From assembly GCA_043821645.1 (NCBI GenBank), contig JBDRCO010000086.1, forward strand, positions 1 through 63,947: a stretch of DNA of 63,947 nucleotides. The letters run 5' to 3'. How positions within the stretch are numbered: position 1 is the first letter of the stretch; each line of letters starts with the position of its first letter. Below the pieces are notes generated by a model. It was not told where the DNA came from. It ran no database searches and saw only the letters and a list, made by a program, of their open reading frames with translations. Below are positions 1 through 63,681 of this stretch, piece after piece. Both the position numbers and the translations under genes were made by a program. This DNA comes from Pseudomonadota bacterium (GTDB lineage Bacteria > Myxococcota > JACRCW01 > JAFGSX01).

Positions 1-1
1 C

Positions 2-943
2 TACGCGGCACTGCTGAAGATCCTGAACCTGCAGGCGCGCCGCATCGAGGTGCAGAACCGCGTGCTGGAGGCGGAGCAGCTCACCTTCGAGCGCCGACGC
101 CAGCATATGCTACGCGATGCGCGCATCCAGGCCCTGTGCATGCTGGTCGCCGGGCTGTCGCACGAGGTGAACAACCCGCTCGGCTTCGCCTGCTCCAACC
201 TCAACTCGCTCGAGGAGCTACTGCAGGATGCCCGGCAAGCGGCCACCCAGGCCTTGCAGCTGGCGCGCCAGGGTGCACCGGCGGTGCAGATCGCCGAGGT
301 GCTCGAGTCCGGCCAGTGCTGCGAGTTGCTGGCGGACGGGGAGCAATGTCTGCGGGAGAGTCTGCAGGGGCTGGATCGGCTGGCCAGCGTGGTGCGGCGT
401 CTGAATAGCTTTTGCTCACTATCGGTGCAGGGGCAGGACGGGGTGAACCTGAGCGCGGTGGTCGAGCGGGCTGTTGCGAAGGTGCTGGTACAGCACCCCA
501 CACGCCGCATTTGCTTCGAGGCTGTGCAGGTTCCCCCACTCAGGGGGTCGCGCGAGCATCTGGTCGAGGTTGTCGAGGTCTTGCTGGACAACGCACTCAA
601 GAACTCACCGCCTGACGTCGGCGTCGAGGTGCATCTGATGAGCAGCGGTGGTGAGCTGCTCCTGTCGGTGCGGGATTCCGGTCGAGGTATCGCACCCGAG
701 CGCATCGATTCCATCTTCGAGCCCTTCAGCACGGACAAGTTCGCGGACTGGCGTGGCACTGGCCTGGGTTTGGCCTCACTGCACGGCATCGTGCTCGCCC
801 ATGGAGGTCGCGTCGAGGTGTCGAGCCAGGTCGGGAAGGGCAGCATGTTCATAGTGTGCCTGCCGCACAGCGAGGTGGAGGCCGAGCGTGCTGTGGACCC
901 GCGCGATTCCACACCGGAGCCCCACCGCGGAGCCAACCCGTGA
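2..943 (+). CDS. Sensor histidine kinase, 5'-truncated by window edge
   Basis: Frame open from base 2; H-box AGLSHEVNNPL, N-box LLDNA, G1 DSGRG, F-box FEPF, G2 GTGLGL. Confidence 0.9.
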   Translation, partial: YAALLKILNLQARRIEVQNRVLEAEQLTFERRRQHMLRDARIQALCMLVAGLSHEVNNPLGFACSNLNSLEELLQDARQAATQALQLARQGAPAVQIAEVLESGQCCELLADGEQCLRESLQGLDRLASVVRRLNSFCSLSVQGQDGVNLSAVVERAVAKVLVQHPTRRICFEAVQVPPLRGSREHLVEVVEVLLDNALKNSPPDVGVEVHLMSSGGELLLSVRDSGRGIAPERIDSIFEPFSTDKFADWRGTGLGLASLHGIVLAHGGRVEVSSQVGKGSMFIVCLPHSEVEAERAVDPRDSTPEPHRGANP

Positions 944-2727
944 TCGGTCTGCCGCAGGAGCAGAGGCCTGTCGACGAGGTGCGTGCATCGGCACAGGTGC
1001 TGCTGGTGTCCAGCCAGTGGGGCCGTCGCTCGGCGATTCACAAGTTGTTCGATCTGTTCGAGGCACGGTGCTTTTGCGCGGAGACGGCAGAGCAGGCGAT
1101 CGGGTACCTCACCAGCGAGCCTGTGAGTGTCGCCGTGGTCGACCTGGACCTGGAGGGCTTCGATGGGTTGACCCTGATCGGACACTTGTGGCGCGGCGCC
1201 CCGGACCTGCCTGTGCTGGTGTTTGGTGGCAACCAGAGACCTGCCAAGCGCAGGGCAGCAGCCCTGGCCGGGGTGAGCGCCCAGTTTGACTGGCCACCTG
1301 ACCCCGAGGCGTTGATGCTGGCGGTCCGCGTCGCCACCAGCCAGCCGCACGGCAAGTCGTACAGCGTGACCCGCCAGCTCATGGCCACGTCGAGCGCCAT
1401 CGCCCTGCACGCCGGCACGGCCCAGGCCATCCAGGAGTTCCTGGATCGTGCGCTGGCGACATTGGTGCTGCATTTCGAAGCCAATAGAGGAAGCCTGTTT
1501 ACCCTGGTGAGCACCGAGGTGAAGCAGGTCCTGCGCGCCCAGGCCTGGCGGGGTCTCGAGGCGAGCTGGTTGCGCGACCTCGCACCGGGTGAGGGGGTCA
1601 CCGGCAGGGTCTTTCAGAGCGGGCTGGCTCAGCTCTTTCTCGACGAGGCCGCTGCCCAGCCGGGCTACGAGAGCTGCACGACCATCTGTGGGCTCAGCTC
1701 GAGTATGTCCGTGCCGTTGCGAGCCCAGGAGCAGATCTTGGGTGTGGTGAACCTGGCCGTGACCAGCCCCACCCGGGCATTCTCGCCGCGCGACCTCGAA
1801 ACCCTGGAGTTTCTGGCCGGTCAGGTCGGCGTGGCGACGCGACAGGTCGAGGTCCAGGTCGAGCAGGCGGCACTGCGCCAGCAGCTTCAGAACGCCGAGC
1901 GCCTGACCGTGGCCGGCGAACTGACCGCCGGCATCACCCACGAGATCAAGAGCCCGCTTGCGTACGTGCAGACCAACCTCCACGCCCTGCGCGACTATCT
2001 GCGCTCGGTGCAGCCCTTCCTTACGCGCGCGGTCGCGGACCAAGAAAGAGGTGCATTGCCGCGCGACCTCGACGACGTCCTGGACGTGGAGGGCACTCGA
2101 GAGCTGATCGCCGATGGACTTCCTCTGCTCGAGGAATGTGGCAGCGGGCTCGGCCGCATCTTGAAGATCGTGCAGGATCTACGCTCGATGATGCAGTCGG
2201 ATGCCGACGTGGTGATGGAGGCAGTACGCCTTGCCGAGGTCATCGCGCAGGCCGTGAAACTGACCCGGGCCCGAGTCAGCCCTGCGGCCAGGGTGAAGGT
2301 CACCTGCGACGGGGAACCTGTGGTCAGGGCCTGCGCGGTGCAACTGGTGCAGATCATCGTCAACCTGCTTAACAACGCCGCGGACGCCATCACCGAGCGG
2401 CCCGAGGGAGCAGCAGCGGGTGAGATCGCGGTGCGCGTGACCCAGCAAGACGCGCTGGTGCTGCTCGAGGTCGAAGACAACGGCGTGGGCATGGACGAGG
2501 CAACCCTGCAGCGCGCCTTTCAGCCGCTGTTCTCGACCAAGCTGCGGCGCGGTGGCACCGGTCTTGGCATGGGCATGGTCAAGCGTATCGTCGAGCGGCA
2601 CCAGGGCCAGCTCGAGGTCACCAGCACGCCCGGCCAGGGGACCTGCATCCGCGTGCGCTTTCCCCATCGGTCTGCACCGGAGCCTGTTGCCGAAGCGGGC
2701 TCAAGTTCCGGGGATGCGTCCCGATGA
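940..2727 (+). CDS. Hybrid kinase: atypical receiver + GAF + HisKA/HATPase
   Basis: GTG overlaps upstream TGA; REC-like N-terminus lacks acidic pocket and Lys; GAF (GEGVTGRV..SMSVPL..ILGVVNL..FSPRDLETL); AGITHEIKSPL, NLLNNA, GTGLG. Confidence 0.85.
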   Translation: MIGLPQEQRPVDEVRASAQVLLVSSQWGRRSAIHKLFDLFEARCFCAETAEQAIGYLTSEPVSVAVVDLDLEGFDGLTLIGHLWRGAPDLPVLVFGGNQRPAKRRAAALAGVSAQFDWPPDPEALMLAVRVATSQPHGKSYSVTRQLMATSSAIALHAGTAQAIQEFLDRALATLVLHFEANRGSLFTLVSTEVKQVLRAQAWRGLEASWLRDLAPGEGVTGRVFQSGLAQLFLDEAAAQPGYESCTTICGLSSSMSVPLRAQEQILGVVNLAVTSPTRAFSPRDLETLEFLAGQVGVATRQVEVQVEQAALRQQLQNAERLTVAGELTAGITHEIKSPLAYVQTNLHALRDYLRSVQPFLTRAVADQERGALPRDLDDVLDVEGTRELIADGLPLLEECGSGLGRILKIVQDLRSMMQSDADVVMEAVRLAEVIAQAVKLTRARVSPAARVKVTCDGEPVVRACAVQLVQIIVNLLNNAADAITERPEGAAAGEIAVRVTQQDALVLLEVEDNGVGMDEATLQRAFQPLFSTKLRRGGTGLGMGMVKRIVERHQGQLEVTSTPGQGTCIRVRFPHRSAPEPVAEAGSSSGDASR

Positions 2728-2815
2728 TCACACAGGACCTGTGCGCACAACATCGCCCCGGCGCTCGTATGCCGCGATCCGTGAAGTGGTCCAGCACCGT
2801 GTCCGGGAGGGCAGA

Positions 2816-5185
2816 ATGCAGAGTTCGACTCCCTTCGTGGTGGCGGTGGATGACGAACCCAAGGTGCTATCGACACTGCAGCGCATCCTGGCAAAAGTGG
2901 ACATCGATGTCCTCGGGATCCAGGGAGGTATCAAGGCCTGCGAGATCTTACGGGAGGTGACACCCAGCTTGATCCTTCTCGACAGGGCCATGCCAGACAT
3001 GGACGGTCTCGAGGTCTGTCGCTGGATCCGGGAACAGCCGCACCTGCTCGAGGTGCCAGTGGTCTTCGTCTCCGGGCAAGCGGAGCGCGATAGCATCGAC
3101 GAGTGCCTGCAAGTCGGTGCCTCGGATTTCATCGTCAAGCCCTTCAACACCAGTGAACTGAAGTTGCGTGTGCAGCTCCACCTGAAGCTCGCCGAGAGCT
3201 CCCGCTTCGTTGCCGCGGTATCCGCGGCAGCGCGCGATGCCATCGTCACCATGGATCCGGATTGCATCATCGCCGGCTGGAACCGAGCTGCAGAACGGAT
3301 CTTCGGCTACACAGCACGCGAGGCCGTGGGCAGCAACCTCTACTCCCTCATCGCGCCTAATCGCCAGCCCAGTGATTCCAGCCAGGACTTCGAGGATTTG
3401 CCTCAGACTGGTCAGTGGGGTCGGCTCGGGCAGATGCAGGAGCTGCAGGCCAAGTGCAAAAGCGGCGATGCGCTGCCCATCGAGTTCTCGCTGTCGCCCA
3501 TGCGTATCGCCAATCACTGGTGGGCTGTGGGCATCGCCCGGGACATCAGCGAGCGCAAACGCGTAGAGCTGGAACAGCAACGAGGTTACGAGACACTCAA
3601 GCTGGTCCTCGAGCGAATGCCCATCGGGGTCGTGCTCATCGATTTCGACCACAGGGTGCGCTGGTGCAACAGCGAGGTCGCGCGCATGGCAGGGGTGCCC
3701 GATGCCCGGGCATTGTTGGGTTCGCAGTGCAACGGTCTGCTTTGCCCAGCGCACGGGGGAGCGTGCCCTGTGCTGGACCAGGGCGAGCGCGTCGAGAATG
3801 CTGAACGCGTGTTCCGGCGAGCGGATGGGCACGAGATCCCCATCCTCAAGGCCGTGGACCAGGTCGAGTTTGCCGGCGAGCCCATGCTGCTCGAGACCTT
3901 TATCGATATCTCTGACAGAAAGCGTCAGGAGGCCGCGCTGTACGAGAGCGAGGCGAACTATCGCGGCCTGTTCGAGGGCTCTCACGACGCCCTGATGACC
4001 CTGGAGCCGCCAAGCTGGAGGTTCACCTCGGCCAACCCGTCCACTCTGAAGCTGTTCGGAGCCGGCAGCCTGCAGGAGTTTCTGAGCCTTGGACCGGGGG
4101 ACGTGTCGTCGGACAGGCAGCCGGGGGGAGAGGACTCTGCAAGCAGCGCCGCCGCATACATCGGGCGGGCGATGCAGGAGGGCTCCTGCTTTTTCGACTG
4201 GACACATCGGCGCATCTCGGGCGAGGAGTTTCCGTGTACGGTGCTGCTCACCCGAATGGTGCGTGGCAAGCACACGTTCTTGCAGGCCACGGTGCGCGAT
4301 GTCTCCGCGAGCAAGCGGTTGGAAGCCGAGCTCGGTCACGCGCGCAAACTCGAAGCCGTGGGGCAGCTCGCCGCGGGCATCGCCCACGAGATCAATACCC
4401 CGGCCCAGTTCATCGGCGACAGCGTGTCCTTCCTCAAGGATGCCTACGGCGATGTGATGGCCCTGCTCGATCGGGTAGAGGCCTTGCTGGCAGACCCGGC
4501 CGCGGCAGGAGATGCCACCCAGCTGGCACACGCCTACGCCGAGGCCGCCGAGCGGGCGGACCTAGACTACCTGCGCAGCGAGGCGCCCCAGGCGCTGGAG
4601 AGCTGCGCCGAGGGCGTGCGGCGTGTGGCCGCCATCGTGCGCGCCATGAAGGAGTTTGCCCACCCCGATCAGCGTCAGCAGAAGCCGGCAGATCTCAACA
4701 AGGCCGTCGAGAACACGCTGGTCATCGCCCGCAACGAGTACAAGTACGTGGCCGAGGTGGAGACCGAGCTGGGCGATCTTCCCCCGGTGCTTTGCTGTGT
4801 TGGTGACCTCAACCAGGTGTTCCTGAACCTGCTGGTCAACGCCGCGCATGCCATCGCTGACGCCCGTAGCGCCGAGGGAGAAAAGGGCACCATCCGGGTG
4901 AGCACGCGGCACGAGGGCGACTCCGTGTGCCTGGAGTTCGAGGACACCGGATGCGGGATTCCTGATGAGATCCGCGATCGCATCTTCGAACCCTTCTTCA
5001 CCACCAAGGAGGTGGGGCGCGGCAGTGGCCAGGGGCTGGCCATCGCGCGCTCCATCATCGTCGACAAGCACAAGGGCACGCTGGAGGTGAAGACCCAAGT
5101 GGGAAAGGGCACGACTTTCTCGATTCGCCTACCCGTGACCGGAACCCAGAAGCCGGCGAGGACCATTTCAGCGGGGGCGGCCTGA
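2816..5185 (+). CDS. Hybrid kinase: receiver + ~3 PAS + HisKA/HATPase
   Basis: ATG after GGGAGG; VAVDDEP..LLDRAMP..DFIVKPF; PAS WNRAAERIFGY..RDISERK; AGIAHEINTP, FTTKEVGRGSGQGL. Confidence 0.9.
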   Translation: MQSSTPFVVAVDDEPKVLSTLQRILAKVDIDVLGIQGGIKACEILREVTPSLILLDRAMPDMDGLEVCRWIREQPHLLEVPVVFVSGQAERDSIDECLQVGASDFIVKPFNTSELKLRVQLHLKLAESSRFVAAVSAAARDAIVTMDPDCIIAGWNRAAERIFGYTAREAVGSNLYSLIAPNRQPSDSSQDFEDLPQTGQWGRLGQMQELQAKCKSGDALPIEFSLSPMRIANHWWAVGIARDISERKRVELEQQRGYETLKLVLERMPIGVVLIDFDHRVRWCNSEVARMAGVPDARALLGSQCNGLLCPAHGGACPVLDQGERVENAERVFRRADGHEIPILKAVDQVEFAGEPMLLETFIDISDRKRQEAALYESEANYRGLFEGSHDALMTLEPPSWRFTSANPSTLKLFGAGSLQEFLSLGPGDVSSDRQPGGEDSASSAAAYIGRAMQEGSCFFDWTHRRISGEEFPCTVLLTRMVRGKHTFLQATVRDVSASKRLEAELGHARKLEAVGQLAAGIAHEINTPAQFIGDSVSFLKDAYGDVMALLDRVEALLADPAAAGDATQLAHAYAEAAERADLDYLRSEAPQALESCAEGVRRVAAIVRAMKEFAHPDQRQQKPADLNKAVENTLVIARNEYKYVAEVETELGDLPPVLCCVGDLNQVFLNLLVNAAHAIADARSAEGEKGTIRVSTRHEGDSVCLEFEDTGCGIPDEIRDRIFEPFFTTKEVGRGSGQGLAIARSIIVDKHKGTLEVKTQVGKGTTFSIRLPVTGTQKPARTISAGAA

Positions 5186-6396
5186 TGAGCTGGCGCGTGC
5201 TTTTTATCGATGACGAACCTGCGGTGCTGCAGGGGTTGAAGCAGAGGCTGAGGCGATATCGCCAGCTGTGGGACATGCACTTCGTCGAAGGAGGTGAGCA
5301 GGCGCTTGCCGCGCTCGCCGAGCAGCCCTTCGATGTGGTGGTCAGCGACATGCGCATGCCCGGCATGGATGGTGCGACCCTGCTGAGAAAAGTGCAGGAG
5401 CTCTATCCTCAGGTGGTGCGCATCGTCCTGTCGGGCCATGCCGAGCAGGAATCGGCCATACGCGCGGTGGCGGTGACACACCAGTTCCTCAACAAGCCCT
5501 GCGACGCCGGCGTGCTGGAGAACGTGATCGACCGCGCGGCCAGCCTGCATGCGCGGGTCCAGAACCCGGCCTTGCTGAGTACCATCGGTACAATACAGCG
5601 GCTGCCTGCCATACCCAGGGTCTACGTGGCGCTGACCCGGGCGCTGGAGGACGAGCGGAGCACCCTGAACGACGTCGCGGGGATCCTGCAAGAGGATCTG
5701 GCGCTGTGCACGAAGCTCCTGCAGATCGTCAACTCGGCCTACTTCAGGCTGTCTCGCCGCATCGCCAAGGTCGAAGAGGCAGTGGCCTACCTGGGCCTGC
5801 ACACGATCCAGAAGCTGGCGCTGGCCGCCGAGGTGTTCGGGCAGGTGACCGACCTGGGCGCCGAGGATCAGCAGCTCCGCGCTCGTCTGCAGGACCGCAG
5901 CCTCCTCGTCGCCGCGATCGCGCAGCAACTCCTGACCGATCCCGGGCAGCAGGACGATGCCTTTGTGGCCGGCTTGCTCCACGACGTGGGCTGGTTGATC
6001 CTGGTGGCACAGCTTCCCGACAAGCTGGCCGCGCTGCGGGCGGATCTGGCGACGCACGGTGGCCCCCTGCACGAGATCGAGGTGCAACGGCTGGGGGTCA
6101 CCCACGCCGAGCTCGGGGGATACCTGCTGGGGATCTGGGGTTTGCCCTACTCGGTGGTGGAGGTGGCGTTTGCGCACCACGCCCCCTGGGAGGTCAGGCA
6201 GATGGGCATGGACATCCTGGCTGCGGTGTACATTGCGGAGTCCCTGGCAAGCGAGCACGTGCCTGCCCTGTTCGCCGGCGCCGACGAGGCCCCGCTGCGA
6301 GAGGACTACCTGCGACAGCTCGGTCAAGCCGACAGGCTCGCGACATGGCGTGCCAAGGCCGAAGCGCAGGCCAAGCAGCGACGAGCGCACGGGTAG
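5185..6396 (+). CDS. Response regulator with HDOD domain
   Basis: REC VLFIDDEP..VSDMRMP..NKP; HDOD LPAIP..KLLQIVNSAYF..AGLLHDVG..HAELGGYLL..WGLP. Confidence 0.9.
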   Translation: MSWRVLFIDDEPAVLQGLKQRLRRYRQLWDMHFVEGGEQALAALAEQPFDVVVSDMRMPGMDGATLLRKVQELYPQVVRIVLSGHAEQESAIRAVAVTHQFLNKPCDAGVLENVIDRAASLHARVQNPALLSTIGTIQRLPAIPRVYVALTRALEDERSTLNDVAGILQEDLALCTKLLQIVNSAYFRLSRRIAKVEEAVAYLGLHTIQKLALAAEVFGQVTDLGAEDQQLRARLQDRSLLVAAIAQQLLTDPGQQDDAFVAGLLHDVGWLILVAQLPDKLAALRADLATHGGPLHEIEVQRLGVTHAELGGYLLGIWGLPYSVVEVAFAHHAPWEVRQMGMDILAAVYIAESLASEHVPALFAGADEAPLREDYLRQLGQADRLATWRAKAEAQAKQRRAHG

Positions 6397-6419: not shown

Positions 6420-7568
6420 ATGGAAACGACCCGCACCCCGGCACAGCGGCGACCTGCGATCCTGTGCGTCGACGACGAGCCGGAGTTGCTCGCCGGCCTG
6501 GGCCTTCACCTTCGTCGCCACTACACGCTGTCCACGGCCACCAGTGGTGCCCAGGGACTGCAGCTTCTCACCGAGCAGGGGCCCTATGCTGTTGTGATGT
6601 CGGACATGCGCATGCCCGGCATGAACGGGGCCGAGTTCCTGGCCGCCGTGCGTCAACGCGCGCCAGAAACGGTGCGCATGCTGCTCACCGGTCATGCGGA
6701 CATGGAATCCGCGATCAGCGCTGTCAACGAGGGTCAGATCTTTCGTTTCCTGACCAAGCCCTGCCCCCCGGCCTCGGTGCTGGCCGCCTTCGAGGCTGCC
6801 CATCGCCAGTACCAGCTGGTGACCGCCGAGAAGGTGCTGCTGGAGCAGACCCTGCACGGCAGCATCCAGGCCCTGTCCGCGGTCCTGGCGCTGAGCAACC
6901 CCGTGGTCTTTGGCCGCGCCTCGCGGATCAAGAAGAGTGCCGCGGCCCTTGTTCGTGCCCTCGGCCTTGCGGATGCCTGGCAGATCGAGGTGGCGGCCAT
7001 GCTGTCACCGCTAGGGACCATCATCCTGCCCGCGGAGACACTGGAGAAGCACCTGGCAGGCCAGCCGCTGACCGTGGACGAGCAGGCGATGGTCGAGCGC
7101 ATGCCTGCGGTGGTCGAGGACCTTCTGGCCCACATCCCGCGACTTGAGGAGGTGCGCGCCATTCTCGCCGATCTCTCGCTGGCCCGCGCCGGCAAGCTCG
7201 AGGTCTGCGAGGGTGCCGCGGTGCTGGCCATCGCCGCCGACTTTGATGACCTGGAGTCGCGAGGTCAATCAGCGCCGCGGGCTCTGGATGCACTGCAGGA
7301 GCGCGCGCGCTTCTATCGACCGGAGCTGCTCGCGCGCTTCGTGCAGGTGCAAAGAGCGGCCCAGGCCGGAAAGGTGCGTCAGATCGAGGTGAGCGGGCTC
7401 AAGGTGGGGCAGGTGCTGGCCCAGGAGGTGCGCTCGACCGGCGGAGTTCTGCTGGTGGCGCGAGGGTTCGAGATCACCCCAGGGGTGGTCGAACGCCTGA
7501 AGAACTTCAGGGGTGGCAGCATCGCACAACCCCTGCATGTCATCGATCCAGGGTGGGGCGAGAGCTGA
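6420..7568 (+). CDS. Response regulator with degenerate HD/HD-GYP-like domain
   Basis: REC ILCVDDEP..MSDMRMP..FLTKP; HD-fold-like region with AAMLSPLG in place of LHDIG and no GYP motif. Confidence 0.8.
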   Translation: METTRTPAQRRPAILCVDDEPELLAGLGLHLRRHYTLSTATSGAQGLQLLTEQGPYAVVMSDMRMPGMNGAEFLAAVRQRAPETVRMLLTGHADMESAISAVNEGQIFRFLTKPCPPASVLAAFEAAHRQYQLVTAEKVLLEQTLHGSIQALSAVLALSNPVVFGRASRIKKSAAALVRALGLADAWQIEVAAMLSPLGTIILPAETLEKHLAGQPLTVDEQAMVERMPAVVEDLLAHIPRLEEVRAILADLSLARAGKLEVCEGAAVLAIAADFDDLESRGQSAPRALDALQERARFYRPELLARFVQVQRAAQAGKVRQIEVSGLKVGQVLAQEVRSTGGVLLVARGFEITPGVVERLKNFRGGSIAQPLHVIDPGWGES

Positions 7569-7747
7569 TCGGTCAGATCCGGTAGAGCGATGGGGGGGCC
7601 AGCGAGGCGCCACGAAACAGGTGCCCTGACCCCGGGCGCTGGAAAAAAGTGACGGGCACGAGCACGGGGGGATGGAGGGACGGGTCCATCCTCGCCACCG
7701 GGACGCCGGTCAACCCCCGGCCACCAGCAGGGGCTCTACTACCCGGC

Positions 7748-7775
7748 TCAAGGTCGGACCACCCTGTACCGATGA
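7748..7775 (+). promoter_or_regulatory. Sigma28 (FliA)-type promoter of flgM operon
   Basis: TCAAG-N15-ACCGATGA upstream of flgM. Confidence 0.7.
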
Positions 7776-7807
7776 GGGGAGAGGTTGAAACCAGGCTGGA
7801 GTTGCCA

Positions 7808-8098
7808 GTGAAGATTCGCTCTCAACATCCCCCTGCGATCCGTGCCCTGCCGGGCAACATGGCGCCGCTCGCTGCCCGCCGGGGGCCAGAGACCATGGAC
7901 CGGGTCGAGCTGGGCCCGTCGCGCGATGTGCAGCGTGTGGTCGAGCTGGCCACGGCCGTGGTGGACGCACCTGTGGTGCAGGACATCCGGGCCCTGGCGC
8001 TCGAGGGTGTCAGCGTGCAGCAGTTGCACAGGGTGAGCCAGGCCCTGCTGCTGGATGTGCATCTGCAGCACGCCCTGCTGGCAGGAGAGGGAGGTTGA
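7808..8098 (+). CDS. flgM: Anti-sigma28 factor FlgM (divergent)
   Basis: GTG-AAG-ATT (MKI) start with GGAG RBS; DRVELG and VQDIRAL motifs; position before flgN-flgK. Confidence 0.6.
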   Translation: MKIRSQHPPAIRALPGNMAPLAARRGPETMDRVELGPSRDVQRVVELATAVVDAPVVQDIRALALEGVSVQQLHRVSQALLLDVHLQHALLAGEGG

Positions 8099-8553
8099 GC
8101 GAGGTGAGCGCCCAGCCCGCACCGCTGCTCGAGCTGCTTCGCCAGGAGCATGTCGTGCTGCAACAGCTCCTCCGTGCCGAAAGTGCCCTGTCACGGTCGC
8201 TGCTGAGCATGCACGCCGAGGGCATGGACGCATCGCTGGCACTCGTCGTGCGCGCCCAGGACGCCCTGATGGCGCAGCGCGATCGCCGGGACCAGGCCCT
8301 GCAGGATCTCTTCGCCGGCGGAGGGCGGCGCAGCGTCGAGCAGGTGCTGGAATGCCTGCCCGAGAGCCAGCGCCCGGGACTGCAGCAGGAACTGACGCGC
8401 GTGCGTCAGGGATGGAGCCAGTGGTCCACGCTGCGCCAGCGCAACCTGGGGCACGCGGCACGCGGACGGGTGTTGCTTCATCAGCTGTCCACGGCGGGCC
8501 CGGCGTCGAGCACCTACGGAGCTCGCCACGGTCGAGCCATGGTGCGCCCGTGA
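8095..8553 (+). CDS. flgN: Flagellar chaperone FlgN (start 8095 TTG or 8104 GTG)
   Basis: Helical ~150 aa, LRQRN motif, C-terminal TYG; between flgM and flgK. Confidence 0.7.
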   Translation: MSEVSAQPAPLLELLRQEHVVLQQLLRAESALSRSLLSMHAEGMDASLALVVRAQDALMAQRDRRDQALQDLFAGGGRRSVEQVLECLPESQRPGLQQELTRVRQGWSQWSTLRQRNLGHAARGRVLLHQLSTAGPASSTYGARHGRAMVRP

Positions 8554-9941: not shown

Positions 9942-9942
9942 C

Positions 9943-10815: not shown

Positions 10816-10835
10816 TCGCACTCGGGACAAGATCA

Positions 10836-10862
10836 TGCCAGGAGGCAGTACAGCCAGGAGGC
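10836..10862 (+). promoter_or_regulatory. Two AGGA-loop mini-hairpins in csrA leader (putative CsrA sites)
   Basis: GCC-AGGA-GGC repeated at 10837 and 10853; the second overlaps the RBS. Confidence 0.55.
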
Positions 10863-10868
10863 CCGACC

Positions 10869-11515: not shown

Positions 11516-11519
11516 GCCC

Positions 11520-13895: not shown

Positions 13896-13939
13896 GCCAG
13901 GTGAGAGTCAGCCGGCGGCCGCCGCGCCTCTCGTCACCA

Positions 13940-13990
13940 CGAGGCAAGGAAGCCTCGGCCCCCCCCCGCGGGGCAACGTCCAAGGAGGAC
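13940..13990 (+). promoter_or_regulatory. CsrA-binding hairpins in flagellin 5' UTR
   Basis: CGAGGC-AAGGAA-GCCTCG and GTCC-AAGGA-GGAC (over the SD), with GGA in both loops. Confidence 0.75.
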
Positions 13991-53854: not shown

Positions 53855-53867
53855 AGGAGTGGTCCCT

Positions 53868-54704
53868 ATGAGCGTGCCGAACTCCATGACACCGCGATCC
53901 TCCGACCTGCGAGTGCTGGCCATCGCCAGCGGAAAGGGTGGTGTGGGCAAGACCATGCTCAGCTCCAACCTGGCCTGGGCGCTGGGCAGCATGGATAAAA
54001 AGGTCCTGATCGTCGATGCCGACCTGGGCCTTGCAAACGTCGACATCGTGCTCGGGCTAGCTCCGGCGTATCACATCGGGCACCTGCTCAGTGGTCAGCG
54101 TAGCCTGGACGAGGTTCTGGTCACCGCAGCCCCCAACGTGATGGTGCTGCCGGCAGCCAGCGGTATCGCCGAGCTGGCCGAGATGAGCGACGCGCACAAG
54201 CTGGCCTTCCTGTCCGTGCTCGACGAACTCGAGCGCCGCTTCGACTTCATCATCATCGACAACGCCGCGGGTATTGGCAAAAACGTCATTTACTTCACTG
54301 GCGCCGGGCAGGAGGTGCTGATCGTCATCACCCTCGAACCGACCTCGATCACGGATGCCTACGCTGCCATCAAGATCCTTTCACAGAACGCCGGCATCAC
54401 CCGCTTCGATCTGGTCGTCAACATGGTGGCAAGCCTCCAGGAGGCCGAGGATGTCTTTGCCCGGCTCACCACCGTGGCATCGCGCTTCCTCGATGTGCAG
54501 ATCCGACTGCTGGGGTCCATTCAGCGGGACCAGAGCACCTCACGGGCGGTGCTCGCGCAGCAACCCCTGCTTTCACTGTTCCCACAGTCGCCCGCCAGCC
54601 GCTGCGTGCGGCGTATCGCCGAGACTCTCGCGGCGCGTACCCCCGAGCACCTGGTTGGTCGGTCCAGCGTCACACATCCCCGGATGCCCGGGGTGGCACT
54701 GTGA
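53868..54704 (+). CDS. flhG: MinD-like ATPase FlhG/FleN
   Basis: IASGKGGVGKT; DADLGLANVD; EPTSITDAYA. Confidence 0.95.
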   Translation: MSVPNSMTPRSSDLRVLAIASGKGGVGKTMLSSNLAWALGSMDKKVLIVDADLGLANVDIVLGLAPAYHIGHLLSGQRSLDEVLVTAAPNVMVLPAASGIAELAEMSDAHKLAFLSVLDELERRFDFIIIDNAAGIGKNVIYFTGAGQEVLIVITLEPTSITDAYAAIKILSQNAGITRFDLVVNMVASLQEAEDVFARLTTVASRFLDVQIRLLGSIQRDQSTSRAVLAQQPLLSLFPQSPASRCVRRIAETLAARTPEHLVGRSSVTHPRMPGVAL

Positions 54705-55459
54705 GTGGAGCCCTGCCCTGCACCTGCGAGCGCACGCGCCAGATGGAGTCCCTGGTGCCCGTGCTGCGCGCGGTGGCGCGGGCCATCGTGCGCCGCCTGC
54801 CGGCGAGCGTGCAGCTCGATGATCTGGTGGCGGCGGGCGCCATCGGGCTGATCCAGGCAGTGGACAGTTTTGATCCCATGCGTGGAGCCAGCCTGGAGAC
54901 CTACGCACGCGCGCGCATACGGGGCGCCATCCTTGACGAACTCCGGCGCTCGGATATCGTGCCGCGTCGGCTCCGCGACAAGATGAACCGAATTGCCCGG
55001 GAGAGGGCGCGCATCGTCCACGAAGGTGGCGAGGATACCGACGAGGCCATCGCGGCCGCAGTGGGGTGCACCCCGGTCGAGGTCCACGACCTCGATGCCA
55101 CGGTGGCCGGCTCGGGTGTGCTGGCCTTTGTCGACTTCGAGGTCGTGGCGTCTCCGCTGCCCGGAGCTGAGCATGTGCTGGGGCGACGACAGCTCGAGCA
55201 GGCGCTTCGCCAGGCTGTGGCCCAACTCCCTGACCGCGAGAAGCAGGTGCTCAGCCTGTACTACGATCGACAGCTCACCTATCAGCAGATCGGTCAGATC
55301 TTCGGGGTCACCGAATCCCGCGTCTGCCAGATTCACCGCGCCGCGACCCGGCGACTGCGCGTCATGCTGAGCACCTGGGAAAATGAGCGGCCGACTCCTG
55401 TGGATACGGGGCATAGAACAGCCGATGCAGGCATCAGCGTACTCAACCGGCCGGGCTGA
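54701..55459 (+). CDS. fliA: Sigma28 factor FliA
   Basis: RLPASVQLDDL..GL..RIRGAILDELR; LSLYY..IGQIFGVTESRVCQIH. Confidence 0.96.
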   Translation: MSGALPCTCERTRQMESLVPVLRAVARAIVRRLPASVQLDDLVAAGAIGLIQAVDSFDPMRGASLETYARARIRGAILDELRRSDIVPRRLRDKMNRIARERARIVHEGGEDTDEAIAAAVGCTPVEVHDLDATVAGSGVLAFVDFEVVASPLPGAEHVLGRRQLEQALRQAVAQLPDREKQVLSLYYDRQLTYQQIGQIFGVTESRVCQIHRAATRRLRVMLSTWENERPTPVDTGHRTADAGISVLNRPG

Positions 55460-55719
55460 TATGCATGGCCGTGGTGCCACGCAGGAGACAACGTTGAGCC
55501 CCTGTCGGAAGCAACCGCGTCATCTGGCGCAGCCAGAGACGCCGCGAGTCCATTCGGAATCTGTGCCTGCGGACTGACGGCACAGAAGTGCCTGCGCGAA
55601 ATCCAATGAACCGGTTCTTGGGACGATATTTCTTGAGCGCCAGTCCCGTACCGTGAGCACTCCTCACGCGTCCTTTTCCCATCGTGACCCGACTGCAAAC
55701 GATTGCACTTGCTTCCGAT

Positions 55720-55865
55720 GACTTGCCTTCCATGTGACGGGGCAACCTGCTCCCTCCGTTACGGTCGACTTGCCCTCCAGCTGATTGGACTTGTCGCTCA
55801 CCTTCTTGACCGACTTTCCTTGCCCAGAAATGATGACTTGCCTGGCAAGGGTCTCATGACTTGCC
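55720..55865. repeat. Periodic GACTTGCC-core array (7 copies, 21-24 bp period), iteron-like
   Basis: Cores at 55720, 55744 (degenerate), 55767, 55788, 55812, 55835, 55858. Confidence 0.7.
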
Positions 55866-56310
55866 CAGCATCCGCGAGGTTCCTTTCTTCGCTCCTCGAT
55901 CGGTAGGCACGCCGCGGTCACTGCCATGTCGGAGGTCCTCGGTCACGGGGAGCAAATCACCGGCGTCTGCATACAACGAAAAAACTGTGTTGCACGTCGT
56001 CAGACGCCCACCAGAAGGTGTGCCGAACCCTCGCCTTCGGCTCAGGTGCTCGCTTCGCGTGCCGGCGCGGATTGACCTGCGGTCCATCCGCCACTTCTGG
56101 AGCGACAAGGTCGCTGGGCGTCTGACAGGCCGAGGCGGCCTCTCAGGTCAGAGGAGAGAGGGGGCCTTGCCCCCTTCGACTTTCAGTCTCATCCCCCATC
56201 GTCTGCGAGTGGCGTCCAGGTCACCAAGAACAGTAGGGCGCTACTCAGCCCCACTGGCCCGTCCCGGTTGGTATCCACCGTCGGCCGGGCGGCTTGCAGC
56301 TTCCGGTGGT

Positions 56311-57180
56311 CTAGATTGCAGCGGGTACGAGGCGCGTCTGCGGCAGGGTGTCGGCGAACGGGTCATCTGGCTGGCTGGCCTTGACGAGCTTGAGAATGCC
56401 CACGGTCCCGAACCAGCTGGGCCGGAGCGGTGTGGAGCGGGGATCGCCCAGCAGGGCCTTCAGGATACGACCAGCCCGTGGGCTGTAGCTCCAGCGCTCG
56501 GCCCCTGCATCGTACACCGAGCCGTCGTCCGCTGGGCGAAACAGGTAGCCCACGCGCGCGGCGTCTCCTGTGGGCCGAGGCACCCAGGAGAGGATAACCT
56601 TCTCGGGCTGGCTCGGGTCATCGACCAGGTAGATGTACCCCCGACGACGACCATCCGACTTGCGGCGGTAGAGGATGTCGTAGGGCAGGATGCCCACTTC
56701 AGGGAGTTCGATCCCGGTGGCCTCACGCAGGTAGCGTCGGGCGCGTACGCTCTGATCGCAGTGGAGAGTTGCATGGTGGTGGGCGAAGCGGCGTAGCTCA
56801 GCCCGCTGCCAGGCGCGCTGAACAGCGGCGACCAGAGAGGGACTGCTGGTGAGCTGGACAGGTGCGGCGGGCCCACGGAACTGGTTGCTCGACTGGACCG
56901 GCCGGAACCAGGCAGAGCGGGTGGCGCCAACGGCACGGAAATAGAGCCTGGAGATCACCCCCCGACGCTGCAGGGTGCCAAGCTTGAATCGCGTGTTGCG
57001 CAGGCTTCCGGAGCTCCTTGGTTCGATGCGGCGATGCTGATGGGGGTTCCAGTTGCGACAAGGTCTGGCCTGGGTCGAGAAGTACAGCGCGTGGAGTTGC
57101 TCGGTGGTGGCGAAGCCCAGCTCGTCGAGCAGGTCGAGCAGGGGTTGGTAGCTACTGAGCAGTGATCCGAGCTTGTACAT
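56311..57180 (-). CDS. Replication-relaxation (Replic_Relax)-like protein
   Basis: N-terminal winged-helix pattern LLDELGFATTEQLHALYF..RFKLGTLQRRGVISR; mobile-element context. Confidence 0.55.
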   Translation of the reverse strand: MYKLGSLLSSYQPLLDLLDELGFATTEQLHALYFSTQARPCRNWNPHQHRRIEPRSSGSLRNTRFKLGTLQRRGVISRLYFRAVGATRSAWFRPVQSSNQFRGPAAPVQLTSSPSLVAAVQRAWQRAELRRFAHHHATLHCDQSVRARRYLREATGIELPEVGILPYDILYRRKSDGRRRGYIYLVDDPSQPEKVILSWVPRPTGDAARVGYLFRPADDGSVYDAGAERWSYSPRAGRILKALLGDPRSTPLRPSWFGTVGILKLVKASQPDDPFADTLPQTRLVPAAI

Positions 57181-57440
57181 GCTGGCTCCTTACATGGCCC
57201 GGAGCATCGCTGCCCCGTTGCAGTAGATCGGAAGATCCTGGAAACAGGGGCCGAGGTTGAACGGGCTGTTCATGCACAGACCGATCTGGGTTTGAGGGAA
57301 TGTTCGTCGTGCCTTGTTCGAACGTCTGCTTCGTCGCAGGACGATCGCGCTCTCGCGGGTGCACCCCGGTCCTTCCTCCTTCCCGGCGGCCCTTCTTCTT
57401 TTCATCCGGTCTTGCCCAGCCCCCATGCTCGCCTCGCCCT

Positions 57441-57495
57441 CCTTGCCTTGTCCTTGCCTTGTCCTTGCCTTGTCCTCGCCTTGTCTTCGCCTCGT
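57441..57495. repeat. 11-bp tandem repeat (CCTTGCCTTGT) x5
   Basis: Three perfect and two near-perfect copies. Confidence 0.9.
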
Positions 57496-57687: not shown

Positions 57688-58110
57688 CTAGCGGCCAGGT
57701 CTGCGCTCGAACCTCGGGGCGTACTCGCCGCTGCTGCAATCACCGCTCGCCAGTCTTCTGATCTCGTCGGCCGGGATGCGCTTGCGGCCGCCGATCTGCA
57801 CCGTGCGGATCGCCTCGGAGTTGATCAACTTGTACAGGGAGCTCCTGGACTTGTAGCCAAGCTGCTCGGCCGCCTGGTCGATCGTGAGCAGAGCCGGTAA
57901 CCGATCTACATTATTTTGTATATCATAGGAATGTTGATTTGAGGCTCCTCTGGCGTTCAGCAGGACGGATGGGTCAGCCTCTTCCAGCCGTTCCCCGAAC
58001 ACCTTGACCATTCGCCTTATTTCTGGATATTGTAGATATTCTAAAGTATTACGTGCCCTCCTTGGTGCTTTTTTCGGCGCATCGCAGCGAGCAGCAATGT
58101 CCATAGACAT
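57688..58110 (-). CDS. Excisionase-like HTH (HTH_17 type) DNA-binding protein
   Basis: C-terminal LLTIDQAAEQLG..SRSSLYKLI..IRTVQIGGRKRIP; start uncertain. Confidence 0.75.
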   Translation of the reverse strand: MSMDIAARCDAPKKAPRRARNTLEYLQYPEIRRMVKVFGERLEEADPSVLLNARGASNQHSYDIQNNVDRLPALLTIDQAAEQLGYKSRSSLYKLINSEAIRTVQIGGRKRIPADEIRRLASGDCSSGEYAPRFERRPGR

Positions 58111-58131: not shown

Positions 58132-58183
58132 TTGACGTATATTTAATTTGTTCAGTATAACAGTTTTATGTCTATCAAGTCAA
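58132..58183. promoter_or_regulatory. Overlapping divergent sigma70 promoters in AT-rich switch region
   Basis: Plus strand TTGACG-N18-TATAAC (58132-58161); minus strand TTGACT-N18-TATACT (58183-58154). Confidence 0.7.
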
Positions 58184-58677
58184 ACACAATGTCACAGTCT
58201 TCTCCCAATTCAGCGACCGAGACGCTCCAGGGTGGTGTCTCCAAGGATGCGAGCCAGATCGGCCAGCGCATCCGGGAGGCGAGAAAGACGCTTGGCCTGA
58301 ACCAGCGAGATTTCTCGGCTCGCATCGGAAAGCACTACAACACCGTGGCAGCCTGGGAAGCGGGGTCGAGCCTACCGGACCTGAGCGTGGGCAAGGCCCT
58401 CGCACGGGAGCTCGGCGTGCCCTTTCTGTGGCTGGCAACGGGTGAGGGGGACCCCGCGTCGAAGGACGACCCGATTCCGCGCCCGCTGGATCTCAAGCTG
58501 TTCACGGACACGATGCGCGTGTTTGTCCACGAGGAAGACGCCCAGGGCAGCGCGCTCGATGCCGAGAAGGCCTGGCAGGTTTTCTTGACGCTCTGCAAGC
58601 TGACGCTCGCCATCGGCCGGACGCCAGAACCGGACCTCGTCTCTCAGATCTTCAAGCTCTCCGGCAATCAAGGATAG
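58168..58677 (+). CDS. XRE-family HTH repressor
   Basis: IGQRIREARKTLGLNQRDFSARIG..TVAAWEAG..P..LARELGVPFLWLATGEG. Confidence 0.9.
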   Translation: MSIKSNTMSQSSPNSATETLQGGVSKDASQIGQRIREARKTLGLNQRDFSARIGKHYNTVAAWEAGSSLPDLSVGKALARELGVPFLWLATGEGDPASKDDPIPRPLDLKLFTDTMRVFVHEEDAQGSALDAEKAWQVFLTLCKLTLAIGRTPEPDLVSQIFKLSGNQG

Positions 58678-59083: not shown

Positions 59084-59410
59084 ATGGCAGAGAGCAAGCT
59101 GAAGCGCATTCAATTCCGAGTTACCGAAGCAGAGCATGAACTCATCATGGAGAAGGTCGAGGCCTCGGGACTGACCATGGCCGCACTGTTCCGGGATCAC
59201 CTCGGGAAGGTCAAGGTGCGCAACCGCGTGGACGAGCGCAACCGCTACATCATGCTCCGACGCATCTCGAACAGCCTGAACCAGATCGCCCGCTGGGCGA
59301 ACACGCACAAGAGTGGAGCCGACGCGGTCAGGATCGTCGGCCTCCTCGGCGTGGTGCAGGCGACCATCGAAAGGTTGATCTACCGGATGGACGAGGTGAC
59401 AAGTGCCTAG
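59084..59410 (+). CDS. mobC: Relaxosome accessory protein MobC/MbeC
   Basis: RHH-like IQFRVTEAEHE..SGLTMAALFR; LRRISNSLNQIARWAN. Confidence 0.92.
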   Translation: MAESKLKRIQFRVTEAEHELIMEKVEASGLTMAALFRDHLGKVKVRNRVDERNRYIMLRRISNSLNQIARWANTHKSGADAVRIVGLLGVVQATIERLIYRMDEVTSA

Positions 59411-59654
59411 GACAGAGTTCGAGCACCTGCAGGAGCTGGCCCTGTCGAGGGCACTCGAGGAGCTGGAGGCCGAGAAGGCCGGCTGGAAAGAAGAGAAGGG
59501 GATGATGATCGAGATTCTGAGCCAGCTGAACAGGAGAGTGAAAGAGCTGACCCGGGACATCAGCGTCCTGTCCGCCAAGTTCGAGGAGAAGGTGGCGAAC
59601 GACGAGGCGATCGCCGCGCTCCTTGCCGGTCTGAACGCTGACGCGTCGCGCTAG
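59403..59654 (+). CDS. Small coiled-coil protein, MbeD/MobD-like
   Basis: TEFEH..LSRALEEL..W..LNRRVKELTRDISVLS; coupled to mobC. Confidence 0.5.
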   Translation: MPRTEFEHLQELALSRALEELEAEKAGWKEEKGMMIEILSQLNRRVKELTRDISVLSAKFEEKVANDEAIAALLAGLNADASR

Positions 59655-61718: not shown

Positions 61719-62249
61719 ATGACCACGCTGACCACGCGCACGCAAGCCCTGGCCCTGGCCACCGAGCTGGGCGCTCCCGCGCACCTGGTGCGCCACCTCG
61801 AGCTGGTGAGCGAAGTGGCGGCACAGCTGGCGCAGGCCTTGCGTCAGGCCGGTGTGGCTCTCGACACCGCGCTGGTCGAGGTGGGTGCGGCCCTGCACGA
61901 CGCCGGCAAGATCGTACACCCGGGGGAGTTGCACGGCCCTGGCGAGGAGCACGAGACCGCAGGCGAGCGGCTGCTGCTCGAGAGGGGCGTGGACCCGCGC
62001 GTGGCCCGCTGCTGTCGCAGCCACGGTCGTGCCCTGGAGCTCGCGGCAAGTCTCGAAGAGATGCTGGTCGGGCTCGCCGACAACCTCTGGCGCGGGCAGC
62101 GCCAGCCCGCACTTGAGCTCGCGATCGTCGACCGCGCCGCGAGCCTCCTGGGTCAGGACCGCTGGGACCTGTTCCCTGCGCTCGACGCCTGCTTCGAGGC
62201 GCTGGCGGCCGACGGCGACGTGCGCCTGGCGCGCAGCGCGGGAGACTGA
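61719..62249 (+). CDS. HD-domain metal-dependent phosphohydrolase (cargo)
   Basis: RH..V; GAALHDAGK; HETAG; SH; LAD. Confidence 0.85.
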   Translation: MTTLTTRTQALALATELGAPAHLVRHLELVSEVAAQLAQALRQAGVALDTALVEVGAALHDAGKIVHPGELHGPGEEHETAGERLLLERGVDPRVARCCRSHGRALELAASLEEMLVGLADNLWRGQRQPALELAIVDRAASLLGQDRWDLFPALDACFEALAADGDVRLARSAGD

Positions 62250-62568: not shown

Positions 62569-62985
62569 CTAGACCATGATGAACCGCAGCCTGGCCCTTA
62601 GCTGCTCGAGCTCTGCCTCGAGGGCGTCGGTGAGCCGGTCCTCCTCCTCGATGCGATCGTAGGCTTTCTGGGCTGCCTCCTCGCGAGCCTCGATGGCCTG
62701 GAACAACGCCACGTACTGGCTGTTCTCGTGCGCGAAGTGTGCCTCGATCTCCTCGATGATCGCGTTCATCTCCTTGAAGGCTGCGGCGTGGGCATCGACC
62801 CGGGCCGCGAGGTGCTCGGCCGCGTCGAGCTGCTCCTCGGCGAGGCGGTTGCTCTGCTCGTGCGCCCGGCCCTCCTCCTCGATCTTGGCCTTCAGCTCCT
62901 TCTGGAACCTGATGGACTCTTCGAAGTGATGCCTGATCTCCTCGGCGTCTTCCATGAGGTCCGTTCGCTGTGTGGTGTCGCTCAT
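62569..62985 (-). CDS. Acidic coiled-coil hypothetical protein
   Basis: Glu/Ala-rich 138 aa ORF with RBS; starts 1 nt after the upstream ORF stop. Confidence 0.65.
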   Translation of the reverse strand: MSDTTQRTDLMEDAEEIRHHFEESIRFQKELKAKIEEEGRAHEQSNRLAEEQLDAAEHLAARVDAHAAAFKEMNAIIEEIEAHFAHENSQYVALFQAIEAREEAAQKAYDRIEEEDRLTDALEAELEQLRARLRFIMV

Positions 62986-62986
62986 C

Positions 62987-63358
62987 TCAGTTCCCCCTTC
63001 GCAGCGGCTTGTTGAGGTCCCGCGCCCGGGCCAGAAGGTCCTGCTTGCGCGCGGTCAGCATGCGCTGGCAGTCCTCGAGCTTCGCCTCGCCTGCGAAGAT
63101 GGCGCTCAGGCGCGCGGAGAGGAGGTCCCGGGCGCGCTCCCTGTCGTCGCCCATGGCCCGAAGTCCCGCGAGCTTCGATCGCAGCGCCTGGGCCCTTCGG
63201 TCGTTCGCGTCGACGTTGTTCGCGAGAGCGCCGAGCCGATGGAGGAGGCTCCTGTCACGCTCCGTCATCTCCTTGAAGATGGCGATGTGCCGGTCCAGCT
63301 CGGCCAGCATGAGCTGGCCTGTCTGTCGCGCCTGGTTCCTCATCGTGGCCTCCTCCAT
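62987..63358 (-). CDS. Basic coiled-coil hypothetical protein
   Basis: Arg/Leu-rich helical ORF; GGAGG precedes the second Met (alternative start). Confidence 0.6.
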   Translation of the reverse strand: MEEATMRNQARQTGQLMLAELDRHIAIFKEMTERDRSLLHRLGALANNVDANDRRAQALRSKLAGLRAMGDDRERARDLLSARLSAIFAGEAKLEDCQRMLTARKQDLLARARDLNKPLRRGN

Positions 63359-63513
63359 GGGGGTCCGGATGCTGCTTTCTGTCCCCGGTCCATCTGTTTC
63401 CAGGGTACACGCGTACCGCGACAGGAGGTGTCGCTTTGGCGCCTCGGAGGGGAGCGCAGCAGCAGCCGCGGGAAGCCAAGAAGTCCGGAAATCGGACGTC
63501 CGAAAATCGAACT

Positions 63514-63551
63514 TTTGACAGCCAATTTGACAGCCAACTTGTTGGACAGCC
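63514..63551. repeat. Tandem TTTGACAGCCAA x2 plus degenerate copy (putative integrase arm-type sites)
   Basis: 63514-63525 and 63526-63537 perfect; TTGGACAGCC at 63542; ~100 bp from the tRNA break. Confidence 0.75.
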
Positions 63552-63637
63552 CTGAACAGTTCTGCAAATCGCCCTTGCCTCGCATCAATGTTTTCAGGTG
63601 GTTACGACACCCCTGGTCGTCGATGAACATGCCTCTG

Positions 63638-63681
63638 TCGGATTTGAAGACCGGGGGCAGCACCAGCCACCATGCGCTTCC
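63638..63681 (-). pseudogene. selC: 5' half of tRNA-Sec, truncated after the anticodon loop (attachment site)
   Basis: GGAAGCGC (8-nt acceptor strand), AT, 6-bp D stem GGTGGC/GCTGCC with TGGT loop, CCGGT-CTTCAAA (TCA anticodon); no variable or T arm follows. Confidence 0.85.

Follow-up and report, generated by a model that had tools for sequence, protein, structure and literature searches.

A putative composite integrative mobilizable island at selC with the only flagellar system of a Myxococcota draft genome as candidate cargo

The selenocysteine tRNA gene, selC, is a classic target of genomic islands. The enterobacterial selC islands (LEE, SHI-2 and PAI-I of E. coli 536) have integrases of the P4 type; these target the 3' end of selC, where a 3' repeat is left behind. 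Integrative mobilizable elements (IMEs) such as NBU1, SGI1 and the streptococcal elements are typically 5-30 kb in size and carry resistance or defence cargo. The flagellum is a textbook complex machine of ~40-50 genes; its horizontal spread is debated, and transfers of the whole system have been inferred from trees. Here we examine contig JBDRCO010000086.1 (63,947 nt) of a Myxococcota draft genome. This whole stretch of DNA is called the window. We lean towards reading its first 63.6 kb as the right-hand part of a composite integrative mobilizable island in selC, ~77.25 kb in length, that has the only flagellar system of the genome as its cargo. The kind of element is well known, being a tRNA-gene island with an integrase, an excisionase and a relaxase and no mating pore.

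According to excerpts of the Islander report by Hudson, Lau and Williams (2015, PMC4383910), islands that displace a 5' fragment of the tRNA gene are known but uncommon (159 of 3919). An excerpted account of pSpoCB-1 from Sulfitobacter pontiacus (PMC9044938) places the only flagellar cluster of that genome on a plasmid, and flagellar genes were noted earlier in uncultured Myxococcota bins, as far as excerpts of that literature tell. So far as the searchable full text of the open-access literature extends, no report was found of a flagellar system that is bounded by attachment (att) sites and has its own integrase and relaxase.

All of the readings given below depend on a draft metagenome bin, G000, that consists of 140 contigs (7.07 Mb; completeness 94.7%, contamination 3.95%) with an estimated ~48 tRNA genes (ARAGORN). 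The window is the entire contig C86 of this bin, and C7, C16, C30, C51, C70 and C138 are further contigs of it. The comparison genomes include the sole genome of the same family (G001, 82% complete) and two class-mates (G002 and G003). Pfam scans covered the 73 open reading frames (ORFs) of the window, 8 ORFs of C16 and 12 ORFs of C30, and NCBIfam and PHROGs were also used. By Pfam, the window consists of two-component genes (1-6396), a flagellar set (~7-55.5 kb) and an 8-kb mobilisation (Mob) backbone (55.5-63.6 kb).

The original prediction, made from the letters of the window, described a tRNA-Sec 5' half broken at the anticodon loop at the right end, and a well-formed half is indeed present there (63639-63681, minus strand). 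Read from 63681 to 63643 on the minus strand, it has an 8-bp acceptor arm, a 6-bp D stem, an anticodon stem and the loop CTTCAAA, and the likeness to a tRNA ends within the anticodon loop. No tRNA was called in the window by ARAGORN or Rfam. When the intact tRNA-Sec of the genome was compared with the window by BLAST, the match was confined to tRNA positions 1-39 and no selC 3' half was found. The sole intact tRNA-Sec of the genome lies on C16 (c5905-6001, minus strand; called by ARAGORN, 78.6 bits with the Rfam model). The selC 5' halves of the window and of C16 have the acceptor arm and CCCGGTCTTCAAA in common and differ at six positions, with compensatory changes in the D stem. The crossover is predicted to fall within the 13-nt core CCCGGTCTTCAAA. 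Over 39 positions the window half matches the selC of G001 at 37 and the C16 half at 33; the selC genes of the other 14 relatives are too divergent to tell the two halves apart. Based on the geometry and on the single comparison with G001, the window half would be the displaced native one and the element would supply the 5' half of the working gene. The original expectation for the opposite att site was a selC 3' half on its own. Instead, the far att site appears to be a complete selC with an element-borne 5' half, because the element duplicates the 5' half.

An integrase was also reported to be missing from the window, and this absence held: none of the 73 ORFs gave an integrase match by Pfam, and none of the five six-frame Phage_integrase matches in the genome lies on C86. 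On C16, the ORF at 6123-7331 (minus strand) encodes a tyrosine integrase of 402 amino acids (PF00589, E 2.1e-27, 96.4 bits against a cut-off of 27.1; PHROG integrase, E 4.5e-76) with an N-terminal motif of the arm-binding type and intact catalytic boxes. GACAGCC-type repeats and the integrase are located directly upstream of the intact selC on the same strand. The arm-like repeats noted at the right end of the window recur at this integrase end as an identical stretch of 27 nt; the C16 copy adjoins the integrase gene and has the same orientation as the window copy. The motif TTGACAGCC occurs 52 times in the 7.07-Mb genome, so that ~0.6 copies would be expected by chance on the 83.6-kb scaffold of C16, C30 and the window. 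Five were found, every one at the two att ends and in a single orientation. The original prediction placed the partner att site and a tyrosine integrase beyond base 1 and named their absence upstream as grounds for rejection; both are located on C16, which is reached via C30 by exact end overlaps. An intact tRNA gene (tDNA), a cognate 5' fragment upstream of it in like orientation and an integrase gene within the interval, which are among the criteria of Islander, are found here.

The extent of the island depends on how the three contigs are joined. The last 141 nt of C16 are exactly the first 141 nt of C30, and the last 50 nt of C30 are exactly the first 50 nt of C86. Among the contig ends of the bin there are 138 directed overlaps, mostly of 141 nt, which is the k of the assembler, and each contig end at these two joins has a single partner within the bin. 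A single GAF-HisKA-HATPase ORF spans the C30/C86 join without interruption, and its paralog on C7 is colinear across the join (67% over 452 nt). We infer that C16, C30 and C86 form one contiguous stretch. In the scaffold so joined, the selC of C16 and the 5' fragment of the window are both on the minus strand, with the fragment upstream in tRNA orientation, and the interval between the two selC 5' halves is 77,250 bp. The whole flagellar cluster would then lie between the att sites, which supports the proposal that it and the signalling genes are cargo of an element of more than 63 kb.

The C16/C30 join is likely, but not certain, to be real. The overlap sits in a truncated istA of the insertion sequence (IS) IS21 fused to a truncated norB, and the fact that the assembler left a one-to-one k-mer overlap unmerged implies an unbinned third branch, so the join is possibly strain-specific or wrong. 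With a false or strain-specific join, the real element would be the ~8-kb backbone of Mob, xis and repressor genes at ~55.5-63.6 kb, which may formerly have been fused directly to the integrase module and would have lost its inner att site, and the neighbouring flagellar cluster would be ordinary, resident chromosome. We consider such a small element unlikely. Neither the IS21 fragment nor either of the two contig ends recurs in the bin, as DNA or as protein, and C30 continues without a break from the end of the IS into genes that are themselves unique, which argues against a repeat common to two loci, as this would have broken the contig. Moreover, with the native half at 63643-63681 a small element demands a selC or a part of it at ~55.5-56.3 kb, and none was found above background: the Smith-Waterman scores of tRNA halves and arms at 55400-56400 did not exceed those of 60 random 1-kb windows. 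The tandem accretion of a separate Mob element was considered separately and is likewise unsupported, as this comparison gave no att remnant at the fliA/Mob boundary.

The remnant at the join has structure of its own. The 5' part of istA (C16 ~13935-14141 and C30 1-700) has an N-terminal helix-turn-helix (HTH), one frameshift and terminal repeats, with the left end of the IS at C30 ~550-700. Within C16, it is fused in frame to the C-terminal 350 amino acids of a NorB/COX1-type gene. No second norB or istA homolog was found in the bin. Judged by its structure, this is an IS21::norB deletion scar placed exactly at the left edge of the flagellar and signalling block.

The mobilisation backbone accounts for the right end of the proposed island. 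The relaxase, the excisionase and the repressor that the original prediction recognised were confirmed by profiles, and a NikA/MobC-type accessory protein was found beside them. Its Rep was not confirmed, as this 289-residue protein belongs to no family and gives weak leads only (Replic_Relax at E 0.21, and an Atlas structural match with a TM score of 0.34 on a poor model). The relaxase had been called ColE1-like. Its N-terminal ~315 residues do align to MbeA (NCBIfam NF047848, E 1.4e-44, residues 1-315), and the score of 153.1 bits is below the curated cut-off of 500; by this profile the predicted relaxase is a relative of MbeA and not a member of the family. A sequence search of the PDB with the relaxase gave no matches. 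The repressor and xis genes are divergent across an AT-rich control region. The features that define an IME are present, namely a relaxase (PF03432), NikA/MobC and an excisionase (TIGR01764) on the window together with the integrase on C16. In contrast, no type IV secretion, VirB4 or coupling-protein families were found by Pfam in the 73, 8 and 12 ORFs of the window, C16 and C30, and the lone secretion-type ATPase on the scaffold is a T2SSE-family gene within the flagellar block. By predicted gene content the scaffold is not an integrative and conjugative element, having no mating-pair formation system of its own, and transfer would need a helper conjugation system.

The flagellar system is entire, as the original prediction had it, at the level of Pfam families. 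The cluster consists of flgKL, csrA, fliC, flaG, fliDS, flgJIHAGF, flgED, fliIHGFE, flgCB, motAB(B), fliMNOPQR, flhBAFG and fliA. The encoded machine includes FlhA, FlhB, FliPQR, FliHI, FliF/G/M/N, the rod, rings, hook, junction, filament, cap and stator as well as FlhF/FlhG and FliA. No family match in the window was obtained by Pfam for FliJ, FliL, FlgM and FlgN, and FliK and FliT matched weakly. Regulators are embedded in the cluster: a sigma-54 activator, histidine kinase (HK)/response regulator pairs, HDOD, PilZ, a T2SSE-type ATPase and a 786-residue ParA-like protein. Within G000, FliG_C, Flagellin_N and FlgI are confined to C86, and the same is true of flagellar-type FlhA.

Several comparisons point to a separate history of the flagellar block. 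None of the four markers FlhA, FliG_C, Flagellin_N and FlgI was found in G001. The identity of RpoB to that of G000 tracks kinship (G001 85%, G003 80%, G002 78%, others at most 76%). The FlhA of G000 departs from it, being 49% identical to those of G002 and G003 and 44-51% identical to those of 17 other relatives. The FlhA of G003 is 64% identical to that of G002 and 61-65% identical to those of G034 and G021. Quick IQ-TREE trees, with 22 rows for FlhA and 20 for FlgI, place G000 outside a clade formed by G002, G003, G021, G027 and G034 (SH-aLRT support of 100 and 96), and approximately unbiased (AU) tests reject a grouping of G000 with G002 and G003 (p 4.2e-5 for FlhA and 0.0135 for FlgI). 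These trees argue against simple vertical descent of the flagellar block, and their discordance also speaks against a small element beside a native locus. In addition, the flagellar contigs of the class-mates (97.6 and 76.8 kb) have neither an integrase nor a counterpart of any backbone gene. A flagellar cluster syntenic in relatives without the Mob backbone had been named as evidence that would overturn the island; what the comparisons suggest is that the flagellar genes are not vertical counterparts of the clusters of the class-mates. We infer that the flagellar block reached this genome together with the island or on it.

A number of observations weigh against this reading. The absence of flagellar markers in G001 depends on one genome that is 82% complete. 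The clade of G000, G002 and G003 was chosen for testing after the tree was seen, and the branch of G000 is ~1.0 substitutions per site in both quick trees, a length at which the placement and the AU tests can mislead. None of the 100 other genomes with flagellar-type FlhA in a sample of 400 genomes of the phylum has an FlhA more than 52% identical to that of G000, and a scan of genomes of all species gave seven FlhA loci, none above 50%; with no close relative of FlhA, a donor cannot be named. In G002 and G003, the flagellar loci include counterparts of the REC-PAS-HK and REC-HDOD genes at 45-50% identity; the pairing of a T2SSE ATPase with a neighbouring sigma-54 activator is also common to G000 and these two genomes, with identities of the accessory genes at 40-50%. 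Measured in 5-kb windows, the composition of the flagellar block and of the integrase module does not stand out from that of G000. The sole outlier is at ~55.4-60.4 kb (GC in the 1st percentile, tetranucleotide distance in the 97th). Such host-like composition fits better with long residence or a mosaic origin than with a recent arrival in one piece.

Some of these observations also favour other explanations. That the Mob backbone is the sole compositional outlier would suit a small element, although the GC content at third codon positions (GC3) of the Mob genes, 0.78-0.90, is similar to that of the flagellar genes. The flagellar loci of the class-mates, which are chromosomal and without integrases, would suit it as well. 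The non-flagellar genes on the flagellar contigs of the class-mates have a median identity of 40% (20 genes), equal to that of the flagellar genes (42), and since most of the best matches are non-orthologs this baseline is uninformative. It is also conceivable that the flagellar and signalling block is trapped between attL and attR and no longer moves as a unit, either because DNA resident in the lineage entered a small element with the integrase and Mob genes through an IS21-associated insertion or deletion, or because the island is ancient. The host-like composition, the accessory genes in common with the class-mates and the coincidence of the left edge of the block with the IS21::norB scar all agree with trapped cargo. 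Against it, there are intact ORFs for the integrase, xis, the relaxase and the accessory genes, identical 27-nt arms and an intact 13-nt core, a state that would be unexpected for a long-dead element; the right edge of the block has no IS remnant or repeat mark, and the trees oppose simple vertical descent. On balance trapped cargo also seems improbable to us.

The proposed composite island would have formed as follows. A heterobivalent tyrosine integrase encoded at the C16 end would have recombined attP, whose core was flanked by arm repeats on either side and which brought along a selC 5' half of its own, with the chromosomal selC in the anticodon loop. The element-borne 5' half would then complete a working tRNA-Sec beside the integrase (attR), and the native 5' half would be pushed to 63643-63681 of the window beside the chromosomal flank (attL). 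The order of the island would be the integrase, the HipA-like kinase and the Ser/Thr kinase, followed by the IS21::norB scar, the two-component and sigma-54 regulators, the flagellar genes and finally xis, the repressor, MobC/NikA and the relaxase. Movement, if any, would involve excision as a circle by Int and Xis and then the action of a helper conjugation system on the relaxase and an origin of transfer (oriT). From its intact genes and sites, the island may still be able to excise and be mobilised.

The searches for mobile or empty forms of this island gave no positive result. An empty site was not found, as the selC loci of G001, G002 and G003 have no synteny to either flank and these relatives are too distant; when both flanks (A and B) and C138 were compared with these selC loci by tblastx, the matches were short and low-scoring, with none above 45 bits in one of the comparisons. 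Neither the bin nor the low-depth contigs of four public runs contain attP or attB junctions, which would also suit trapped cargo. The public runs gave three matches from two studies, with 0.21-0.31 of the words shared, and pieces of 150-570 nt at a depth of 2-6 in four runs. The joints in these runs have sides of at most 44 nt and resemble other organisms. In run X1, pieces at 55255-55577 and 55550-55815 span the fliA/Mob boundary piecewise. No related island was found in scans for the integrase, the relaxase, the arm repeat and the 5' halves. Among the best 80 of 544 confirmed integrase loci, the best identity is 38% and none is near enough for a comparison of att sites; the relaxase has one 51%-identical match, on a 3-kb contig without context; neither the native nor the element-borne 5' half had an exact match when species genomes were scanned; and a metagenome scan for the arm repeat gave a single unrelated contig of 1.46 kb with no tRNA nearby. 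Positions 78-101 of this contig are identical to the 24-nt double GACAGCCAA arm motif amid sequence that is otherwise unrelated, and the contig may be the end of a related element. In a groundwater run from a different study (X3), the pieces of flagellar genes have no differences and those of the Mob backbone (window 56029-63686) have up to 10 differences per 300 nt. These differences point to a related strain in which the Mob backbone is present as well.

A bolder version of the proposal is that of an active "motility island" of ~77 kb, excisable by Int and Xis, mobilizable by its relaxase and carrying the whole flagellar regulon, that makes swimmers of aflagellate relatives in one transfer. 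We regard this as doubtful, though worth stating for what would follow from it. If true, a regulon bounded by att sites with an integrase, an excisionase and a relaxase would be a concrete vehicle for flagellar transfers, and a lineage whose closest sequenced relative is without flagellar markers could become motile in a single step. Additionally, the island would keep the selenoprotein synthesis of its host intact by means of its own selC 5' half and promoter.

A second island appears to be integrated in tandem at the same gene. On C138, positions 1725-1792 plus 5 nt comprise an anticodon loop, a selC 3' half and ACTTA, with no 5' half. This fragment is 97% identical to the C16 copy and has a C-to-T change in the T loop. 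It is bordered by a Fic/DOC gene on the inner side and by IS66 fragments and cell-wall genes on the outer side, and C138 overlaps the 249-kb contig C51, which anchors the selC locus in the main chromosome. The lone 3' fragment is assigned to this second island, which by its layout is of the classical 3'-fragment configuration and lies between C16 5904-1 and C138 1-1724, with an assembly gap. The part of C16 at 1-5904 includes a 1074-residue ELWxxDGT-repeat protein and an IS91-type fragment. The working selC is apparently a chimera of two element-borne halves, the 5' half from one island and the 3' half from the second, and the locus is a case of tRNA-gene "ownership" in which selC seems to have been assembled from the halves of two islands.

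The coordinates of the features of the window are given in Table 1. In the backbone, the GACTTGCC and TCCTTGCCTTG repeat sets flank the gene of the 289-residue protein, and these direct repeats look like iterons or regulator sites. Beyond attL, the original prediction had a cyclase gene in the chromosomal flank. This identification is unconfirmed, as the 55-residue fragment has no Pfam match even at E<=1, and no contig of the bin overlaps the end of C86 there. Next to the integrase, C16 7446-13001 encodes a 547-residue HipA-family kinase with an N-terminal extension, a 349-residue Ser/Thr kinase and a 663-residue DUF7309 protein, a set that may serve the island in addiction or defence. Within the flagellar cluster, a protein of 836 residues without any family is encoded between csrA and fliC (11385-13895), the genes of the ParA-like protein, a PilZ protein and the T2SSE-type ATPase adjoin that of the sigma-54 activator (33992-38228), and there are two adjacent MotB-plug paralogs (43801-45221), of which only the first has an OmpA domain. 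Elsewhere in the genome, a second FHIPEP-family gene (C70 62229-64292) is 37-39% identical to the FlhA of the window and 82.5% identical to its counterpart in G003. It seems to be vertically inherited and, since there are no further flagellar markers in the genome, it probably belongs to a type III system other than the flagellar one.

Table 1. Predicted features of the window, with positions, strand and basis of assignment.
Feature	Position	Strand	Basis
Signalling genes: C-terminal part of a GAF-HK continuing from C30, REC-GAF-HK, REC-PAS-HK, REC-HDOD	1..6396	plus	Pfam
Complete flagellar cluster	7011..55459	.	Pfam
fliA/Mob boundary, non-coding	55460..56310	.	at least 5 GACTTGCC-type repeats at ~55700-55870
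289-aa protein, earlier "Rep"	56311..57180	minus	no Pfam, NCBIfam or PHROG match at standard thresholds
Iteron-like repeats, five tandem 11-nt TCCTTGCCTTG units	57440..57494	plus	
Excisionase-type HTH protein, candidate Xis/recombination directionality factor	57688..58110	minus	PF12728 E 7e-9; TIGR01764 29.1 bits, cut-off 28.8
cI/Cro-type HTH_3 repressor	58168..58677	plus	PF01381 E 4e-13; PHROG repressor families down to E 1.6e-15
NikA/MobC/MbpA-type relaxase accessory protein	59084..59410	plus	PF21983 E 2.6e-14; PF05713 E 1.3e-7; MbpA E 1.2e-7, below cut-off
83-aa coiled-coil ORF after the NikA/MobC-type gene	59403..59654	plus	
Relaxase, ColE1 MbeA-like over N-terminal ~315 aa	59667..61415	plus	PF03432 39.9 bits, cut-off 24.6
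HD/HDIG-domain phosphohydrolase	61719..62249	plus	Pfam HD E 7.7e-11; NCBIfam HDIG 32.1 bits, cut-off 27.6
Two small coiled-coil ORFs (138 and 123 aa), island end	62569..63358	minus	GC3 0.90; Pfam matches sub-threshold
Putative arm-type integrase-binding repeats, two GACAGCCAA units, P arm	63513..63539	plus	27/27 identical to C16 6029-6055
Core common to both att sites, CCCGGTCTTCAAA, anticodon stem and loop	63643..63655	minus	window, C16 and C138 copies compared
Putative displaced native selC 5' half (tRNA positions 1-39), attL of island	63643..63681	minus	BLAST, G001 comparison
Flank B: C-terminal 55 aa of gene running off contig end; chromosomal, outside island	63779..63946	minus	GC3 0.95

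The proposed island can be compared with several known systems. As in the islands described in the excerpts of the Islander report (PMC4383910), a tyrosine integrase would have interrupted a tDNA that the island itself made whole again, with the displaced fragment and the regenerated gene as the marks of the two ends; the crossover centred on the anticodon and the tandem array at one tDNA are also found among them. Unlike most of the islands in those excerpts, it is the 5' fragment that is displaced here, the cargo is flagellar and the ends lie on different draft contigs. With LEE, SHI-2 and PAI-I this locus has in common the selC target and a large island, and LEE carries a whole export machine, the type III injectisome, which is related to the flagellar export apparatus. 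Those islands carry virulence genes and most are without a relaxase, whereas a flagellum and a relaxase are found here. The combination of an integrase, an excisionase, a relaxase and an accessory protein with no mating-pore genes, and hence dependence on a helper, is that of the IMEs, but typical IMEs are far from the ~77 kb and ~50 motility genes of this locus. The mobilisation genes resemble the MbeA/MbeC module of ColE1 in that the N-terminal ~315 residues of the relaxase align to MbeA end to end and a gene for a small ribbon-helix-helix accessory protein immediately precedes that of the relaxase; the likeness does not extend to the C-terminal half of the relaxase, and these genes would belong to an integrated island instead of a small plasmid. 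Finally, in the roseobacter flagellar plasmids, as excerpts of their description have it (PMC9044938), the sole flagellar cluster is likewise on a mobile replicon and motility is a transferable accessory trait, but those plasmids are autonomously replicating and of the RepABC type, unlike the integrase-bounded island proposed here.

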